This document shows, one piece after another, positions 2,462 to 27,305 of a stretch of DNA of 29,144 bases. Origin of the DNA: a virus (taxonomy: Duplodnaviria > Heunggongvirae > Uroviricota > Caudoviricetes); IMG/VR virus record IMGVR_UViG_2737471841_000001, positions 1-29,144 of that record; one strand, given 5' to 3'. The position numbers were made by a program, and so were the translations under genes. Each line of letters opens with the position of its first letter. The first letter of the stretch is position 1. A model generated the notes under the pieces. It was not told the origin of the DNA, did not search any database, and worked only from the letters and a program-made list of their open reading frames with translations.

Positions 2462-2493
2462 AGGCCTGCTGGTAATCGCAGGCCTTTTTATTT
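2462..2493 (+). terminator. Intrinsic terminator between replication and nin regions (tR2-like position)
   Basis: Perfect 8-bp stem AGGCCTGC / GCAGGCCT with 8-nt loop, followed by TTTTTATTT. Confidence 0.6.
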
Positions 2494-2508: not shown

Positions 2509-2715
2509 GTGGTTGAGTTGATTTTCTCTGCATTGAGGCTTCTCGGTGCTCTGTGGATGGTGGCGACGTTCATTGTGGTTGTTGGCTGTTTTGTCCGGTT
2601 GGTAGGCGAAGGTAAAGACCTGGTGGGTGTGCTTTTCGGTAGCATTTTCCTGTGGGTGATTATCGGTGTTATGCCTGTCGCTGTAGCAAAAATGGCGTGG
2701 CGTTTTGTGAGTTGA
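2509..2715 (+). CDS. Small hydrophobic membrane protein (two predicted TM segments), function unknown
   Basis: 68 aa, GTG start; hydrophobic stretches LLGALWMVATFIVVVGCFV and VLFGSIFLWVIIGVMPVAVA. Confidence 0.45.
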   Translation: MVELIFSALRLLGALWMVATFIVVVGCFVRLVGEGKDLVGVLFGSIFLWVIIGVMPVAVAKMAWRFVS

Positions 2716-2732: not shown

Positions 2733-3047
2733 ATGGACGAATCAAGAAAGCAGTTTGAGGAATACGTTGCCAAAAAATTGAGATTACCATTCGAGATGAT
2801 AACCGAGGCAAGAAATGGTGATAGGTACTTCGCATTTTCAAGCATGGATATTCGTCACTCCTTAAATGAGTGGTGGACTTTATGGCAGGCATCGCGAGCA
2901 GATATTGAAATAACCGCGCCAAAGTTTATCGACAGCAGAGAAGCATTAGCCAAAGGGTTTACCGTTGATTATTCCAATGGCTTCGGTGATGCAATGGATG
3001 CTTATGAGGAAAACATCCGCTCTGCTGGAGTCAAAGTGAAGGAGTAA
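2733..3047 (+). CDS. Hypothetical nin-region protein
   Basis: 104-aa ORF, stop 3 nt before the NinB start; no family recognised. Confidence 0.55.
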   Translation: MDESRKQFEEYVAKKLRLPFEMITEARNGDRYFAFSSMDIRHSLNEWWTLWQASRADIEITAPKFIDSREALAKGFTVDYSNGFGDAMDAYEENIRSAGVKVKE

Positions 3048-3049
3048 CG

Positions 3050-3460
3050 ATGAAGCAAACAATCTTCCTCCGAAGTAAGCAACAACAGCAAGCCGCAATC
3101 AACGCCATCCTCGAAACTCCTCTCGATAAAGACAAGCCAGTCACCATCCGCATTACTGACTACAAGCGCAATCTTGACCAGAACGCAAAATTTCACGCGA
3201 TGCTGGCGGATATCGCTCGTCAGGTTCAATGGTGCGGCAAATGGTTAAAACCGGAACAGTGGAAGGTTTTGTTGATTAGCGGTCATGCAGTGGCAACAAA
3301 ACAGGAAGCTGATGTTTTGCGCGGCCTTGAAGGCGAATTCGTCAACATTCGCGAAAGCAGCGCGCAGATGAGCGTGAAGCGTATGGCAAGTCTGATCGAG
3401 TACACAACAGCCTGGGCTATTGGTCAGGGTGTCAGATTTACCGACAGGAGGTACGAATGA
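3050..3460 (+). CDS. ninB: NinB (Orf-family recombination mediator)
   Basis: 136 aa, resembles lambda NinB as I recall it (e.g. [27 protein letters not shown]); nin-region context. Confidence 0.9.
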
Positions 3461-3639
3461 GACGACAGCGACGAAGTTTCACCGACATCATCTGCGAAAA
3501 CTGCAAATACCTTCCAACGAAACGCTCCAGAAATAAACGCAAGCCAATCCCAAAAGAATCTGACGTAAAAACCTTCAACTACACGGCTCACCTGTGGGAT
3601 ATCCGGTGGCTAAGACATCGTGCGAGGAATACAAGGTGA
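3457..3639 (+). CDS. ninE: NinE
   Basis: 60 aa ([60 protein letters not shown]), matches NinE from memory; ATGA overlap with ninB. Confidence 0.85.
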
Positions 3640-3806
3640 TTGACCCAAATCGAAGTTACGAACAAGAAAGCGTCGAGCGAGCTTTAACGTGCGCTAACTG
3701 CGGTCAGAAGCTGCATGTGCTGGAAGTTCACGTATGTGAGCACTGCTGCGCAGAACTGATGAGCGATCCGAATAGCTCAATGTACGAGGAAGAAGACGAT
3801 GAATGA
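3636..3806 (+). CDS. ninF: NinF (CxxC zinc-ribbon-like)
   Basis: [28 protein letters not shown] motif. Start placed at GTG 3636 (GTGA overlap with ninE stop); the alternative upstream start at 3594 (also GTG) gives 70 aa. Confidence 0.75.
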
Positions 3807-4521
3807 GTTAATAAATGGCAATGCCATCAAAATGACAAGCATTGAAATCGCTGAGTTGGTGGGTAAGCGTCATGACAATGTGAAACGTACCATCGAAACG
3901 CTGGCTAAAAATGGTGTTATCCGGCTTCCTCAAATTGAGGTTTCCGAAAGAATCAATAACTTAGGGTTCAATGTTCAGTACGAGCATTACGTCTTCGAGG
4001 GCGAACAAGGTAAGCGAGACAGTATTGTCGTTGTTGCCCAGTTGTCGCCAGAGTTCACCGCTCGCCTTGTTGACCGTTGGCGAGAGCTTGAAGAAGCTGC
4101 GGTTAATATCCCCAAAACGCTACCGGAAGCGTTGCGCCTTGCTGCTGACCTTGCTGAGCAGAAAATGCAACTGGAAAACCAGCTCGCAATTGCCGCACCT
4201 AAAGTTGAGTTTGCCGATCGCGTTGGCGAGGCCAGCGGAATTTTGATTGGAAACTTTGCAAAGGTTGTTGGAATTGGTCCAAACAAACTGTTTGCGTGGA
4301 TGCGCGATCACAAAATCCTTATTGCTTCAGGTTCCCGGCGCAATGTGCCAATGCAGGAATATATGGATCGCGGCTATTTCGCAGTGAAAGAAACAGCGGT
4401 CAACACAAATCACGGAATACAGATATCGTTCACCACAAAAATCACCGGGCGTGGTCAACAGTGGCTGACCAGAAAGCTGCTCGATAACGGAATGCTGAAA
4501 GTAACCGGGGAGGCTGCTTAA
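3799..4521 (+). CDS. Rha-family phage regulatory protein with KilA-C/antirepressor-like C-terminal domain
   Basis: N-terminal Rha-like signature IEIAELVGKRHDNVKRTIETL; C-terminal region resembles antirepressor KilAC domains. 240 aa. Confidence 0.75.
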   Translation: MNELINGNAIKMTSIEIAELVGKRHDNVKRTIETLAKNGVIRLPQIEVSERINNLGFNVQYEHYVFEGEQGKRDSIVVVAQLSPEFTARLVDRWRELEEAAVNIPKTLPEALRLAADLAEQKMQLENQLAIAAPKVEFADRVGEASGILIGNFAKVVGIGPNKLFAWMRDHKILIASGSRRNVPMQEYMDRGYFAVKETAVNTNHGIQISFTTKITGRGQQWLTRKLLDNGMLKVTGEAA

Positions 4522-4811
4522 TGGCTAACCTACGCAAAGAAGCGCGCAACAGAGAATGCCAGGTACGTATTTACGGCGTATGCAATGGTAATCCTGAAAC
4601 TACAGTTCTGGCACATTACCGGATGGCTGGAATTTGCGGAACGGGAATGAAGCCTGACGACCTGATCGGTGCATGGGCTTGTAGTGACTGCCACGCGGAG
4701 ATCGACCGACGCACCCATAATCTCGACAACAAAGACGCCAGACTTTACCACCTCGAAGGCGTGATCAGGACGCAGGCGATACTGCTGAAGGAGGGGAAGA
4801 TTAAGTCATGA
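4521..4811 (+). CDS. YbcO-like DUF1364 protein (Cys-rich putative nuclease)
   Basis: 96 aa, RECQVRIYGVCNGNPETTVLAHYR...CSDCHAEIDRR resembles E. coli DLP12 YbcO from memory; TAATG overlap with upstream gene. Confidence 0.8.
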   Translation: MANLRKEARNRECQVRIYGVCNGNPETTVLAHYRMAGICGTGMKPDDLIGAWACSDCHAEIDRRTHNLDNKDARLYHLEGVIRTQAILLKEGKIKS

Positions 4812-5170
4812 GCGAATATCAGTTTGTGCTTCCATACCCGCCGTCGGTGAACACCTACTGGCGAAGACGGGGAAGCCAATACTACATCAGCGATAAAGGC
4901 CAGAAATACCGAAAAGACGTTCAGCAAATCATCCGCCAACTTAAGTTAGACATTTTCACCAAATCACGACTCCGCATCAAAGTCATCGCAGACGTTCCAG
5001 ACTCCCGCCGCCGCGACCTCGACAACATCCTGAAAGGTTTACTCGACTCCCTTATCCACGCCGGATTTGCGGAAGACGACGAGCAATTCGATGACATTCG
5101 CGTAATTCGTGGCGTGAAAGTACCAGGCGGAAGGCTTGGAATAAAAATCACCGAACTGGAGAACGCATGA
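4808..5170 (+). CDS. rusA: RusA Holliday-junction resolvase
   Basis: 120 aa, LPYPPSVNTYWRRRG ... DVPDSRRRDLDNILKGLLDSL ... GGRLGIKITE matches the RusA family. Confidence 0.9.
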   Translation: MSEYQFVLPYPPSVNTYWRRRGSQYYISDKGQKYRKDVQQIIRQLKLDIFTKSRLRIKVIADVPDSRRRDLDNILKGLLDSLIHAGFAEDDEQFDDIRVIRGVKVPGGRLGIKITELENA

Positions 5171-5355
5171 ACGCCACAATTCAAACGATACCAGAGCTTC
5201 TTATCCAGACACGAGGCAATCAGACTGAAGTGGCAAGGATGCTTTCCTGCGCAAGAGGAACAGTGCTCAAGTACAACCGAGACAGCAAAGGCGAGCGTCA
5301 TGTAATAGTTAACGGCGTCCTGATGGTCAAACAGGGCAAGAGGGGAAGACGATGA
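5167..5355 (+). CDS. ninH: NinH
   Basis: 62 aa, IPELLIQTRGNQTEVARMLSCARGTVLKY resembles lambda NinH; coupled start/stop. Confidence 0.8.
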   Translation: MNATIQTIPELLIQTRGNQTEVARMLSCARGTVLKYNRDSKGERHVIVNGVLMVKQGKRGRR

Positions 5356-5975
5356 GACTCGAAAGCGTAGCTAAATTTCATTCGCCAAAAAGCCCGATGA
5401 TGAGCGACTCACCACGGGCCACGGCTTCTGACTCTCTTTCCGGTACTGATGTGATGGCTGCTATGGGGATGGCGCAATCACAAGCCGGATTCGGAATGGC
5501 TGCATTCTGCGGTAAGCATGAACTCAGCCAGAACGACAAACAAAAGGCTATCAACTATCTGATGCAATTTGCACACAAGGTATCGGGGAAATACCGTGGT
5601 GTGGCAAAGCTCGAAGGAAATACTAAGGCAAAGGTACTGCAAGTGCTCGCAACATTCGCTTATGCGGATTATTGCCGTAGTGCCGCGACGCCGGGCGCAA
5701 GATGCAGAGATTGCCACGGTACAGGCCGTGCGGTTGATATAGCAAAAACAGAGCAGTGGGGGAGAGTTGTCGAGAAAGAGTGCGGAAGATGCAAAGGTGT
5801 CGGCTATTCAAGAATGCCAGCAAGCGCCGCATATCGCGCTGTGACGATGCTAATCCCAAACCTTACCCAACCAACCTGGTCACGCACTGTTAAGCCGCTG
5901 TATGACGCTCTGGTGGTGCAATGCCACAAGGAAGAGTCAATTGCAGACAATATTTTGAATGCAGTCACACGTTAG
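5352..5975 (+). CDS. Q: Late-gene antiterminator Q (lambda type)
   Basis: 207 aa; matches lambda Q as I recall it essentially throughout (MRLESVAKFHSPKSPMMSDSPRATASDS ... CRDCHGTGRAVD ... CGRCKGVGYSR). Confidence 0.95.
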   Translation: MRLESVAKFHSPKSPMMSDSPRATASDSLSGTDVMAAMGMAQSQAGFGMAAFCGKHELSQNDKQKAINYLMQFAHKVSGKYRGVAKLEGNTKAKVLQVLATFAYADYCRSAATPGARCRDCHGTGRAVDIAKTEQWGRVVEKECGRCKGVGYSRMPASAAYRAVTMLIPNLTQPTWSRTVKPLYDALVVQCHKEESIADNILNAVTR

Positions 5976-6017: not shown

Positions 6018-6053
6018 TTGACTTTTTGAATAAAGTTGGGTAAATTTGACTCA
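6018..6053 (+). promoter_or_regulatory. pR'-type late promoter with overlapping qut-like region
   Basis: TTGACT (6018-6023), 17-bp spacer, TAAATT (6041-6046), then TTGACTCAACGAT as in the lambda pR' initial transcribed region. Confidence 0.7.
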
Positions 6054-6410
6054 ACGATGGATAAATGCACTCGTTAAATAAAGCCCTGAGTTAATAGCTC
6101 GGGGCTTCTTGCGTTTTAAGCACGACCTTTCTGAAAGCGCATCAAACCAAATACCAGACAGACCAAAATAATCACCTTATCCGCTGTGGCTACGGTGCGG
6201 TGTGCTTTGCATAAAAGAAAACCAGCTCAATGGCTGGCTTCGTGAAAGCGGGTGGCAAGAGGTTGCGCTAACAACCTCATGCCGTTTTGCCCGTGCATAT
6301 CGGTCACGAACAAATCTGATTACTAAACACAGTAGCCTGGATTTGTTCTATCAGTAATCGACCTTATTCCTAATTAAATAGAGCAAATCCCCTCAATGAA
6401 GGGGTAGAGC

Positions 6411-7898: not shown

Positions 7899-8429
7899 AT
7901 GAAGTACCCAACAGTTATTGTCAATGGTGTGTCCGTTCGTGTTGATGATGATGGACGCTACAACTTAAACGATCTCCATGCAGCAGCAGTTGCAAATGGA
8001 GAGGCTACAGAGCAACAGCGCCCAAGCCAGTTTTTGCGTAGCGCGCAGATAAAACGCTTCATAAAAGCACTGGAGGCCAAAGTGCAAAAAAGCACTTTGG
8101 AACAAATTCAACCACTTAAAATAATCAAAGGTGGTGCAGAACCAGGTGTGTGGGGTGTTGAACTTCTGGCAATCAGATATGCAGCATGGATTAAGCCGGA
8201 ATTTGAAATCGAAGTTTATGAAGTTTTCAAAACGGTCGTCCGTCTCGGCGTTGGCGCAATGTCCCGTCTGAATAGAATCGATCACATCATCAATACTGAA
8301 ACCAAAGCGATAAGCCAGTGCGCAAGCCAAATGGCTAAGTGGGGCGTTGGTGGGCGAAAAAGATTGCTTCATGTTGCACGTGAGAGAGCGGCAAATGAAG
8401 TGCAAATGTATTTGCCCGGAATGGTGTGA
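7899..8429 (+). CDS. KilA-N domain protein
   Basis: 176 aa; N-terminal VIVNGVSVRVDDDGRYNLNDLHAAA is typical of KilA-N/Bro-N DNA-binding domains. Confidence 0.75.
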   Translation: MKYPTVIVNGVSVRVDDDGRYNLNDLHAAAVANGEATEQQRPSQFLRSAQIKRFIKALEAKVQKSTLEQIQPLKIIKGGAEPGVWGVELLAIRYAAWIKPEFEIEVYEVFKTVVRLGVGAMSRLNRIDHIINTETKAISQCASQMAKWGVGGRKRLLHVARERAANEVQMYLPGMV

Positions 8430-24859: not shown

Positions 24860-25159
24860 CTATGTTTCCTTTTTATTATTGCTATACATGGTCTTAAGCG
24901 TTTCAAAAACCATTTTCTTAACCATATCAGATTGTTGTTCTGCCATACGCTCTGCATCGTCAATGTAAACTGATGCAGAGCTTTGTTTAGCCAATGATTC
25001 TTCAATCGCTGCAATTATCTCTGAGTTCAGCGACCTGTTATTCATCTTCGCGCGCTGTTTAATTTTCGCGTGGAGTTCATGCGGAAGTCTCAAGTGAAAC
25101 TGCGCCTCGTCGTATTTGCTGTACATCCTTGATGCCTCACCAGTTGGGTGGAATGGCAT
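24860..25159 (-). CDS. mnt: Mnt-like ribbon-helix-helix (Arc/MetJ family) repressor
   Basis: RLPHELHAKIKQRAKMNNRSLNSEIIAAIEESL ... DDAERMAEQQSDMVKKMVFETLK resembles P22 Mnt; start may be the internal ATG at 25126. Confidence 0.8.
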   Translation of the reverse strand: MPFHPTGEASRMYSKYDEAQFHLRLPHELHAKIKQRAKMNNRSLNSEIIAAIEESLAKQSSASVYIDDAERMAEQQSDMVKKMVFETLKTMYSNNKKET

Positions 25160-25199: not shown

Positions 25200-25222
25200 A
25201 TGCAACCACATCATGGTTGCAT
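25200..25222. promoter_or_regulatory. 23-bp perfect palindrome, candidate operator between mnt and tailspike
   Basis: ATGCAACCA-CATCA-TGGTTGCAT (9-bp arms, 5-bp spacer) in the 88-bp divergent region, 26 bp upstream of the tailspike ATG. Confidence 0.4.
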
Positions 25223-25247
25223 CATATCATTCGTCTGGAGCAATGAA

Positions 25248-27305
25248 ATGTCAGATATCACCGCAAATGTTGTGGTAAGCATGCCTTCTCAACTCTTCAC
25301 TATGGCTCGTTCTTTTAAAGCGGTAGCCAATGGCGAAATTTATATCGGGAAAATTGACACTGACCCGGTAAATCCTGAAAACCGGATTCAGGTTTATGTA
25401 GAGAACGAAGACGGCTCTCACGTTCCTGTTTCGCAACCAATCATCATTAACGCTGCTGGTTACCCGGTATATAACGGACAGATTGCCAAGTTCGTAACTG
25501 TGCAAGGCCATTCTATGGCTGTTTATGATGCGTATGGTGCACAGCAATTCTATTTTCCTAATGTGCTGAAGTACGATCCTGATCAGTTAAGGCAGGAGCT
25601 GGCGGGGCCAAACGGCGTAGATCTGGTAAACGGAGCGGCAAAGCAGACTGATGTTAATAAGCTGAACATTCACACTAGTGGCTACGTCAATGTGCTTGAG
25701 TATATCCCTGAAAACCTGCATCAGTACCTTACAGACTTGGCTCAGTCACAAACGAACGCAGGGGACCTAATTTCCTATCTTAATGCAGCGTCAGCATACT
25801 GCGAAAAGAACCACAAAGACCTTGTATTTCCGTTCGGATATTACTTTGTATCAAACACCTTCATGTTACCTGCTGGGGTAAAGGTGATAGGTCTTGGCTA
25901 CCCGTACATCCTTGCTCTAACCCCATTTAACGCTTCAAATATTATTGTAAGTTGCGATAAAACAGGACAGCCAACTTATGATATGGATATGTTTCATATA
26001 AACGGTCCTGGCCCTAGCAACCTCGACATGGTGGGGTTGCGAGTCGGCGGATGTCGTAATAGCAAATTTTCAAGGATAATCGTTACCAGTTGCTTCTCTG
26101 CCGGGGTAGAGGTTTACCCAACAGTAGCAACATCAGGAGATGTTGAAAACCTACACCTTGACCATGTCTGGACCGTACTGTCTGGAGGGGTGCGCTTTAA
26201 AGCTAACGCCTCTATAGCTAGGGGCAATATCACGGATGCAACTGTATCAAACTGTCAATTAACGACTGGAGATGCAACCTTGTCCGGACCTCCAGCTATC
26301 ACTATTACAGGGGCGCCTGGCAGGCAGATATTCGGGATTGCTTTTAAACGGGTATTTACACAAACGACTGACCAGGACCATATAGTAGTAAATCCAAATG
26401 GTGGAAGCGTATTCCATAATACATTTAGTGATATAAGTGGTGAGTCATGGACTATTGCCGCAGGCGGTATTTCTGGCTCATTCGCTAAGAATGCGCTATA
26501 TGTACTCGATGGTGCATTTACCACCAATTCATTCCGCGACTTCTATAAACAGGGTTTGCCTGGCAACGGTATTACTTTAGGTGTTGGCTCATCTGGTAAT
26601 CTGTTTGACGGGCTTCGATTCATGGACAGAAATGTTGTTGGATATAACAACAAGTGGTTAATCATACCATCTGGAGCAAACTCAAACAGTTTTCACGCCT
26701 GCTACTTCGATGGTTGTTTTAATCGCGCCGATTCTGGATATGGTGGCGTAGCGGCTAATTATGTATTCAGAGCTTTTGACGGTAAGATTTCTGACTTGAG
26801 CGGTAGCACAAAATTTGACACACCGGAGATAAGAGACGTTTCTCCAGTTCTCATTAAGAGGTCAACGATATTCGCTATTAGTGGCAACCAATTAGTTAAC
26901 TATCCAGTAACGGGATGCGCCTTTGCAACGACTGCCGATGGCATTAGCGTTGCCGTCCCTGCTGGTAACACCCCCTACTTTCTTACCATACCTTTTACCC
27001 CCACTGCGGGATTCGCAGGTAAATTTATCGGACTTACTATCAAATATGTATGCGGGGCCATGAATGGTATGACCCTGTCGGCGGATATCTGCGGCGCAGG
27101 TTCCGGAGTAACAGATTTAACCACGGGTAAAGCAAATGTGTTTAGCATGTATGGCGCTTACAACTCAGATAACAAAACCGTCACATTAACATTTGGGGGG
27201 GACAGAACGGCGCAGGCTAACATGGCTTTACAAGATATTATAATCACCGAAGGTGCTAACATTCCTTACATACCAAACTTCCGAAAAATATACATTGAGA
27301 GTTAA
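25248..27305 (+). CDS. 9: Tailspike (P22 gp9-like head-binding N-terminus, divergent receptor-binding domain)
   Basis: ATG 25248 with GGAG 9 nt upstream; [11 protein letters not shown]...[21 protein letters not shown]...[13 protein letters not shown]...VLKYDPDQ matches the gp9 head-binding domain; remainder differs from P22 gp9. Confidence 0.9.

Follow-up and report, generated by a model that had tools for sequence, protein, structure and literature searches.

The gene at positions 3799–4521 of the viral record IMGVR_UViG_2737471841_000001 is, judged by its sequence, roi, the already known and very common gene for the 'DNA-binding protein Roi' of lambdoid phages. The record was analysed over its full length of 29,144 nucleotides, which we call the window; it is overall a P22-like (Lederbergvirus-type) Escherichia coli phage with APC_JM3.2, HZ41 and IME10 as its nearest relatives. 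The best joint explanation of the data is that the gene is roi and that a palindrome inside it is Roi's own operator, located beside a site for integration host factor (IHF). We estimate the probability of this reading at roughly 0.75. The elements concerned are as follows.

3799–4521, plus strand: roi coding sequence, ATG start, 240 amino acids (aa), from the list of open reading frames (ORFs) and the sequence; ortholog of roi in HK620 and HK022
3861–3986, plus strand: mosaic 'specificity patch' of 126 bp, aa 22–63, from protein and DNA alignments
3871–3909, plus strand: predicted recognition-helix codons, aa 25–37, HDNVKRTIETLAK, from the AlphaFold2 secondary structure
3928–3940: 13-bp perfect palindrome, candidate Roi operator, CCTCAAaTTGAGG, codons 44–47 (PQIE), inside the patch
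3951–3963, plus strand: exact match to the IHF consensus, AATCAATAACTTA (WATCAANNNNTTR), 10 bp 3' of the palindrome

The palindrome starts about seven codons past the recognition-helix codons. A palindrome at the homologous centre was found in 20 of 22 genes when at least four of six arm pairs were demanded, and in 19 with at least five of six. These 20 genes included every one of the 11 distant relatives; the other nine came from the 11 enterobacterial sequences. At least eight different palindrome sequences fit the scheme TTCC-nXYZ-N-Z'Y'X'n'-GGAA. The sequences at the same centre were:

HK022/HK97: CTGCAtTGCAG
Allele F: CCTGCAtTGCAGG
VT2-Sakai type: CCCCCAaTGGTGG
Allele G: CCGCCAaTGGCTG
JLK-2012: ATCCTCAAaTTGAGGAT
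Yersinia: CCTCAAaTTGAGG
Pantoea: CCGCCAgTGGCGT
Buttiauxella: CCACCgTTGGTGG

The distant relatives came from metagenomes and one alphaproteobacterium, were 35–44% identical to Roi and had a gene GC content of 52–68%. In all 11, the best dyad lay at exactly the predicted nucleotide (five with 6/6 pairs, five with 5/6 and one with 4/6), and the one with 4/6 carries two valid CTCAR half-sites. Examples are TTCCTCCAaTGGAGGAA, TTCCCCCAaTGGGGGAA, TCCCTGCAaTGCAGGAA, TCCCTCAGaCTGAGGAA and TTACTCAAtTTGAGGAA. The dyad was single-copy in every fetched locus, and the palindrome was single-copy at ≤1 mismatch in the whole HK620 genome. Further Roi targets elsewhere were looked for in the window and the HK620 genome and rejected, as none was found at ≤1 mismatch beyond the roi copy. 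At ≤2 mismatches, the window held the exact palindrome and three imperfect matches, which is not above chance.

Covariation was assessed on the alignment of the 22 sequences over eight pairs (176 cells), with 500 shuffles and slid controls. The proportion of paired cells was 80% (62% after shuffling), the number of double-change cells was 27 (9.8 after shuffling) and the covariation score was 0.443 (0.159 after shuffling and 0.07–0.15 in the slid controls). For each of the three measures, none of the 500 shuffles reached the observed value. The four inner pairs each showed three or four Watson–Crick pair types. The innermost pair, which surrounds a single central base, co-varied as well; hence, a dyad in duplex DNA fits and an RNA hairpin does not. 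G-U pairs occupied 4 of the 176 cells.

Codon usage pointed in the same direction. The synonymous codon choices required for the dyad were improbable given the peptide (P ~0.01 for PQIE, PALQ and PPVA). Among 118 family members, all 30 distinct four-residue motifs allowed at least five of six palindromic pairs, compared with 32% of background windows. In these 118 proteins, the residue after Q in the motif was only I/F (CAA-xTT) or S/T/A (CAG-xCT), and the residue after PP[M/L/V] was only V/A/E/G, the residues that the four GnG codons encode.

Roi is a two-module protein, consisting of a pRha domain, a long helix and a C-terminal KilAC domain. The corresponding segments are:

3832–4095, plus strand: Phage_pRha (PF09669), aa 12–99, E=6.5e-9, 36.7 bits (gathering cut-off 29.9)
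4096–4188, plus strand: second mosaic segment, aa 100–130, two forms, mostly in the linker helix (aa 108–143 in AlphaFold2)
4174–4482, plus strand: ANT/KilAC (PF03374), aa 126–228, E=1.3e-32, 112.8 bits (cut-off 25.3)

The AlphaFold2 model was built from 118 diverse relatives. Its confidence score (pLDDT) was 78.5 overall, 83–93 in the N-terminal domain and 77–89 in the KilAC domain. The secondary structure ran through a strand at 11–13, helices at 14–21 and 25–37, strands at 45–52 and 58–67, helices at 68–82 and 84–102 and the long helix at 108–143 into the KilAC domain. On this model, the Phage_pRha module is a predicted winged helix-turn-helix. Roi had no match in the PDB by sequence or profile search, and NCBIfam contained no model for it. 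The two forms of the second mosaic segment read EAAVNIPKTLP...QKMQLENQLAI and GATAKIPQTFS...QKAELEKQLAL. These forms and the N-terminal patch assort independently; in H-19B, an A-type patch is joined to the other linker form.

The palindrome type co-varied with the recognition-helix motif across the family. The pairings were:

Helix ...RTIE[T/S]L: half-site CTCAR
Helix [KR]R[TS]IERL: half-site nCCR
Helix K[VI][ST]I[ED]RL: half-site TGCA
Helix KQSIERL: half-site CCCCA

Moreover, helix and palindrome lie in the part of the gene that varies between phages. The patch at 3861–3986 was ~55% identical in DNA to HK022 roi, with both flanks at ~99%. At the protein level, nearly all differences between the window and HK022 fell within aa 22–64, which is the predicted recognition helix and wing, and 27 of these 43 residues differed from the HK022/HK97 allele. 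Phages and prophages of E. coli carry at least seven allelic versions of the patch, one of which is shared by the window, HK620 and H-19B. The Roi proteins of the window and of HK022/HK97 probably differ in DNA specificity. As helix, wing and candidate operator all lie in one 126-bp patch, phages would swap them as one block, in the manner of a small immunity module.

Nine enterobacterial versions of the gene retained the IHF consensus at its distance of 10 bp, with changes at N positions only: alleles A, B, C, D, F and G as well as the Yersinia, Pantoea and Serratia homologs. The consensus was absent from the 933W-type allele and from the distant relatives. In the 933W/Stx2a-type allele (gene nucleotides ~125–170), the consensus is lost and a degenerate B/F-type palindrome, CCTtCAaTGCAaa, is left. 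Palindrome and IHF site appear to have decayed together in this allele.

Several observations weigh against the operator reading. Dyad symmetry alone is not significant, as ~0.3–1% of the centres in the gene score equally well. The IHF consensus alone is within chance (three matches in the window, 1.5 expected), and its conservation is partly due to the conserved peptide INNLG. The Serratia homolog has the IHF consensus and no good palindrome at the homologous centre, and in the Symbiopectobacterium homolog, the core (CTCAAaTTGAG) is of the A type although the helix is rather different. Kinship among the sequences inflates the shuffle statistics, and the gap between helix and palindrome is only ~30 bp, which means that their correlation can partly be explained by linkage through descent. 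Finally, a scan for sigma-70-like promoters within roi found none on either strand. An internal or antisense promoter under the control of Roi and IHF was therefore dropped as a candidate, and the regulatory output (roadblock, autoregulation or other) is conjecture.

The proposed mechanism is a feedback loop. Roi would bind the palindrome at 3928–3940 inside its own coding sequence, probably as a dimer. Host IHF would bind the adjacent consensus at 3951–3963, bend the DNA and stabilise the Roi complex. The resulting nucleoprotein complex would limit Roi output and possibly also read-through toward Q. When IHF is missing, the feedback would fail and excess Roi would harm lytic growth by way of its KilAC half, which would be the effector part.

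This scheme resembles what a 1996 study of HK022 (Clerget & Boccard) reportedly found. The study is reported to have placed a Roi site, which may correspond to 3928–3940, inside roi and close to an IHF site. Reportedly, Roi binding was also stabilised by IHF, escape mutants mapped in roi and were altered in binding, and Roi was harmful to lytic growth when IHF was missing. The proposed feedback complex would explain this harm. The C-terminal half of Roi is also said to have been found similar to P1 Ant1 and KilA there, a similarity that our alignments reproduced.

We lean slightly toward a wider version of the operator reading. The family of pRha+KilAC proteins, which has thousands of prophage members in Proteobacteria, may encode its own operator in the wing codons, as a dyad of the TTCC-N9-GGAA type with inner bases that co-vary with recognition-helix residues. 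Protein specificity and target would then form one portable autoregulatory cassette of ~120 bp that recombines as a unit, and the enterobacterial Roi cassette would additionally have gained the adjacent IHF site. The pairing of helix residues and half-sites would be a readable code, e.g. T34 with CTCAR and R34 with nCCR. To our knowledge, a self-encoded operator is undescribed beyond the single HK022 observation of Roi binding in its own gene. Nothing relevant on an operator of pRha proteins came up in a search of the literature.

The identity of the gene was established with tblastn of Roi against 50,697 phage records, of which 1,634 had a match. The best ones were annotated roi or 'DNA-binding protein Roi'. 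Identity was 99.2% in HK140, 98.8% in HK620 and in the Stx2 phages 86, PA28 and P27, 93.8% in H-19B, 88% in HK022, 86.7% in HK97, 85% in VT2-Sakai and 81% in 933W. The values for HK620, H-19B and HK022 cover the full 240 aa. Several copies in IMG/VR and in E. coli prophages were 100% identical to the Roi of the window. Of 5426 complete E. coli genomes, 1110 (~20%) carried roi, which was also present in 557 IMG/VR stretches; the related viral-contig loci all carried the same allele (98–100% identical). Rare fused forms occurred as well (among P0001, P0002, P0006 and P0007). One, of 304 aa, has an additional Rha-like segment N-terminal to full-length Roi, and another is a NinB-Roi fusion without Roi residues 1–22. 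These forms are probably deletions or mis-called assembly starts.

The surroundings of roi in the window are:

2462–2485, plus strand: tR2-like intrinsic terminator 5' of the nin genes, from a terminator scan
2509–2715, plus strand: ORF for a hydrophobic protein of 68 aa, probably a membrane protein
2733–3047, plus strand: ORF for a protein of 104 aa with no Pfam match
3050–3460: NinB (Pfam/PHROG)
3457–3639: NinE (Pfam/PHROG)
3636–3806 (probable extent), plus strand: ninF (Pfam NinF and PHROG 672; HK620 ninF is of equal length)
4521–4811, plus strand: ybcO (Pfam YbcO, E=4e-42), in the resolvase slot 3' of roi
4808–5170, plus strand: rusA (Pfam RusA, E=1e-16), in the resolvase slot 3' of roi
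5167–5355: NinH (Pfam/PHROG)
5352–5975: Q (Pfam/PHROG)
6018–6107: pR' and terminator, 3' of Q

The roi gene is a delayed-early gene of the nin operon, located between ninF and the Holliday-junction resolvase genes. The tR2-like terminator is separated from ninB by the two ORFs at 2509–2715 and 2733–3047. In HK620, a tR2 is annotated at the corresponding position. As roi lies behind the terminator, its expression would need antitermination. The end of ninF and the start of roi overlap by 8 nucleotides in ATGAATGA (roi ATG at 3799–3801, ninF TGA at 3804–3806), with the purine-rich GAGGAAGAAG directly 5' of the ATG. The roi stop and the ybcO start overlap by one nucleotide in TAATG (roi TAA at 4519–4521, ybcO ATG at 4521–4523). 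The phage repressor gene lies outside the window.

The original prediction had described a 240-aa protein encoded at 3799–4521 between ninF and the YbcO/RusA pair and translationally coupled on both sides; the ORF, its place and the overlapping stop and start codons agree with the sequence and the Pfam and PHROG neighbours. It had treated the gene as an insertion and given it no name. In fact, roi is long known and standard in the nin cassette of HK022, HK97, HK620 and many Stx phages. The cassette ninB-ninE-ninF-roi-hkbD(ybcO)-rus-ninH-Q has the same order in the window and in the curated records of HK620 and HK022. The statement that the gene sits where lambda carries ninG was imprecise. The resolvase gene after roi is ninG in H-19B, JLK-2012, VT2-Sakai and 933W, and the resolvase genes are ybcO-rusA in HK97, HK022, HK620, HK629 and the window. 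The idea of roi as a ninG substitute was rejected, as H-19B, 933W and VT2-Sakai have roi and ninG together. Since roi precedes ninG and ybcO-rusA alike, it is an additional gene 5' of the resolvase slot.

Three further genes concern the immI region and the KilA-type proteins:

7899–8429, plus strand: KilA-N protein (E=5.8e-18), after the lysis genes, 34% identical to the N-terminal half of P1 KilA
24860–25159, minus strand: Mnt-like ORF with Arc and Repressor_Mnt domains
25200–27305, plus strand: tailspike gene

The Mnt-like gene is intact and divergent from the tailspike gene, 40 bp from the start of the latter, with neither arc nor ant between them. The immI region of the window is therefore reduced to mnt alone, and HK620 has only remnants of mnt and ant annotated at the corresponding place. 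The target of Mnt in the window phage is perhaps a Pant-like promoter that now reads into the tailspike gene. P22 rha (orf201) is placed in the late operon by a cited paper, and the KilA-N gene may lie at an equivalent location. The annotation of hkbK in HK620 reads 'similar to P1 KilA'. In the window phage, P1 KilA is thus represented by two separate proteins, with KilA-N on the 7899–8429 protein and KilAC on Roi.

Among the alternatives to the operator reading, one concerns the effector half and is, as a statement on that half, compatible with it. By analogy, Roi might be a dual regulator like AriS of the Listeria phage phi10403S, with pRha acting on phage DNA and KilAC damping the host SOS response (RecA) during lytic growth. 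In AriS, the KilAC domain is sufficient for SOS inhibition, and control of the encoding phage's genes lies with the N-terminal module, which varies (AntA/B, Bro-N or pRha; Azulay et al. 2022, PMC9043618). Roi has the pRha+KilAC arrangement listed in that paper among three AriS-like architectures. The evidence comes from Listeria phages, however, and AriS at native level gave no measurable SOS inhibition (PMC9043618). We regard this alternative as tentative, with perhaps one chance in a handful of being right.

It is unlikely that Roi is a true antirepressor, as the original prediction had proposed. Its KilAC half would then act as P1 Ant1/Ant2 do on C1, binding and inactivating a repressor of the CI type that is encoded by its own phage or by a co-resident prophage. 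The description as a Rha-family protein with an antirepressor-type C-terminal domain held up in the domain search, with Phage_pRha and ANT/KilAC both above the gathering scores. The C-terminal two-thirds of Roi (165 aa) is 58% identical to P1 Ant1, and the family is named 'antirepressor' in both Pfam and PHROG. The whole protein falls into PHROG 63 (phrog_63), 'anti-repressor Ant', with E=4e-99. Moreover, in two distant relatives, the homolog lies directly after an Arc-family gene, as in arc-ant of the P22 immI region. The window has a Mnt-like gene and yet no P22-type ant: as had been stated beforehand, a classical ant is absent (tblastn with two P22_AR-domain Ant proteins gave nothing significant). 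The protein at 7899–8429 does carry the KilA-N domain that had been assigned to it.

The antirepressor role itself goes back only to the Pfam and PHROG names, and the HK022 ortholog is recorded as a DNA-binding protein. A passage in one paper citing the 1996 HK022 study implicates Roi in lytic growth, and a passage in a second one states that Roi inhibits lytic-cycle activation; in neither passage is Roi called an inducer. In the literature on HK022 Roi, we found no report of Roi as a repressor antagonist. Stx phages have a separate P22-type ant directly 5' of roi, and Stx2a phages tolerate IS629 insertions in roi. As roi lies in a delayed-early operon behind a terminator, it would be made only after loss of the repressor, which argues against a role in starting induction of its own prophage. 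KilAC domains have been linked to opposite activities elsewhere: P1 Ant is an antirepressor, whereas AriS of Listeria inhibits SOS (PMC9043618), and the KilAC domain of AriS lowers both SOS and induction.

Antirepressor-type genes occur next to roi and its homologs in several layouts. In the Stx and related phages JLK-2012, PhiR12_2, VT2-Sakai and Stx2a_F403 (L085–L087 and L089, ~420–1426), such a gene lies directly 5' of roi and replaces ninF, which leads to two 'antirepressor-like' genes in tandem before Q. In our scans, this gene carried P22_AR_N+P22_AR_C in JLK-2012 and ORF6N+P22_AR_C in VT2-Sakai. In PhiR12_2 and Stx2a_F403, it is an antirepressor by annotation only. In 933W, a gene with a P63C domain occupies this position. 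Two metagenomic relatives, L112 (P0127) and L117 (P0186), have an Arc-family gene directly 5' of the pRha+KilAC gene, and L112 also has a P22_AR_N gene before the Arc gene. This arc-ant-like layout suggests that some pRha+KilAC members occupy a true immI-type antirepressor slot. On the metagenomic contig L111, a gene of the Acb2/Tad1-hairpin family (anti-CBASS/anti-Thoeris sponge) lies directly 3' of the pRha+KilAC gene P0178.

It is equally improbable that the palindrome arises as a side effect of a conserved peptide, folds into a hairpin in the mRNA or serves as a target for another factor, an explanation that could appeal to the motif's place within coding sequence, to PQIE being the majority peptide in the family, to several other conserved columns that are 'palindrome-compatible' by chance and to the one homolog (Serratia) that has no palindrome, and that is contradicted by a dyad kept under 30 different peptides and in 20 of 22 genes with compensatory double changes, by the covarying innermost pair, which is useless to an RNA hairpin, by the scarcity of G-U (4 of 176 cells), by codon choice that is non-random given the peptide and by the binding of Roi inside its own gene that is reported for HK022.

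The flagged observation was a correct rediscovery of roi, a gene named since 1996. The new element is that Roi seems to carry its own binding site within its coding sequence. From the alignments alone, a self-encoded and co-varying operator would be a modest but testable addition to what is known of roi. If the palindrome is the operator, the old IHF-dependent phenotype of Roi and Rha would have a testable explanation, and the alleles would provide natural matched variants of protein and operator for reading a winged-helix recognition code. A regulator's site would then lie in the codons of its own DNA-binding domain, where recombination could not separate the two. In Stx phages, roi lies just 5' of Q, and a Roi-IHF complex in the path of early transcription could influence when the toxin and the late genes are expressed. 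The pipeline label 'anti-repressor Ant', which derives from a domain name, is not evidence of antirepressor activity.

Compared with known systems, the Roi of the window is closest to that of HK022, HK620, HK97, H-19B, 933W and VT2-Sakai, with which it shares the domain pair, the place before the resolvase gene(s) and the overlapping start and stop codons. The HK022/HK97 form differs in its internal palindrome, which is CTGCAtTGCAG there and CCTCAAaTTGAGG in the window.

P22 Ant shares with Roi only the generic 'antirepressor' label, apart from a P22_AR_C domain that locally resembles Roi aa 137–169 at marginal significance (E=0.015). Neither P22_AR_N nor P22_AR_C gave a Pfam match in Roi, and tblastn with the two P22_AR proteins gave local matches only (E=0.015–0.23). 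The settings differ as well: P22 ant is in immI under Arc/Mnt, whereas roi is in the nin operon, with the Mnt-like gene 20 kb away. The Rha proteins of phi80 and P22 (orf201) share the Phage_pRha domain, which is named for them; they prevent phages from growing on IHF-deficient hosts, a phenotype of the kind reported for HK022 Roi. P22 rha belongs to the late operon, whereas in the window phage the lysis genes are followed by a KilA-N gene and the pRha protein is encoded in the nin region. AriS resembles Roi in that pRha+KilAC is one of the AriS-like architectures (PMC9043618); it differs in its AntA/AntB N-terminus and its origin from a Firmicute phage.

The relation to P1 is that of a common domain with exchanged partners. 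Roi aa 73–234 align with Ant1 aa 178–342 at the 58% identity given above, and Roi aa 104–233 are 66% identical to KilA aa 130–259. Roi aa 1–72 did not align with Ant1, in which a pRha domain is missing. P1 ant belongs to immI, with icd directly 5' of ant1 and overlapping its start, whereas roi belongs to the nin operon, where the ORF list and Pfam gave no gene annotated as icd 5' of roi in the window. All three proteins, Ant1, KilA and Roi, have the ANT/KilAC domain in common, and it is the N-terminal module that differs, being pRha in Roi, KilA-N in KilA and unrelated to either in Ant1.

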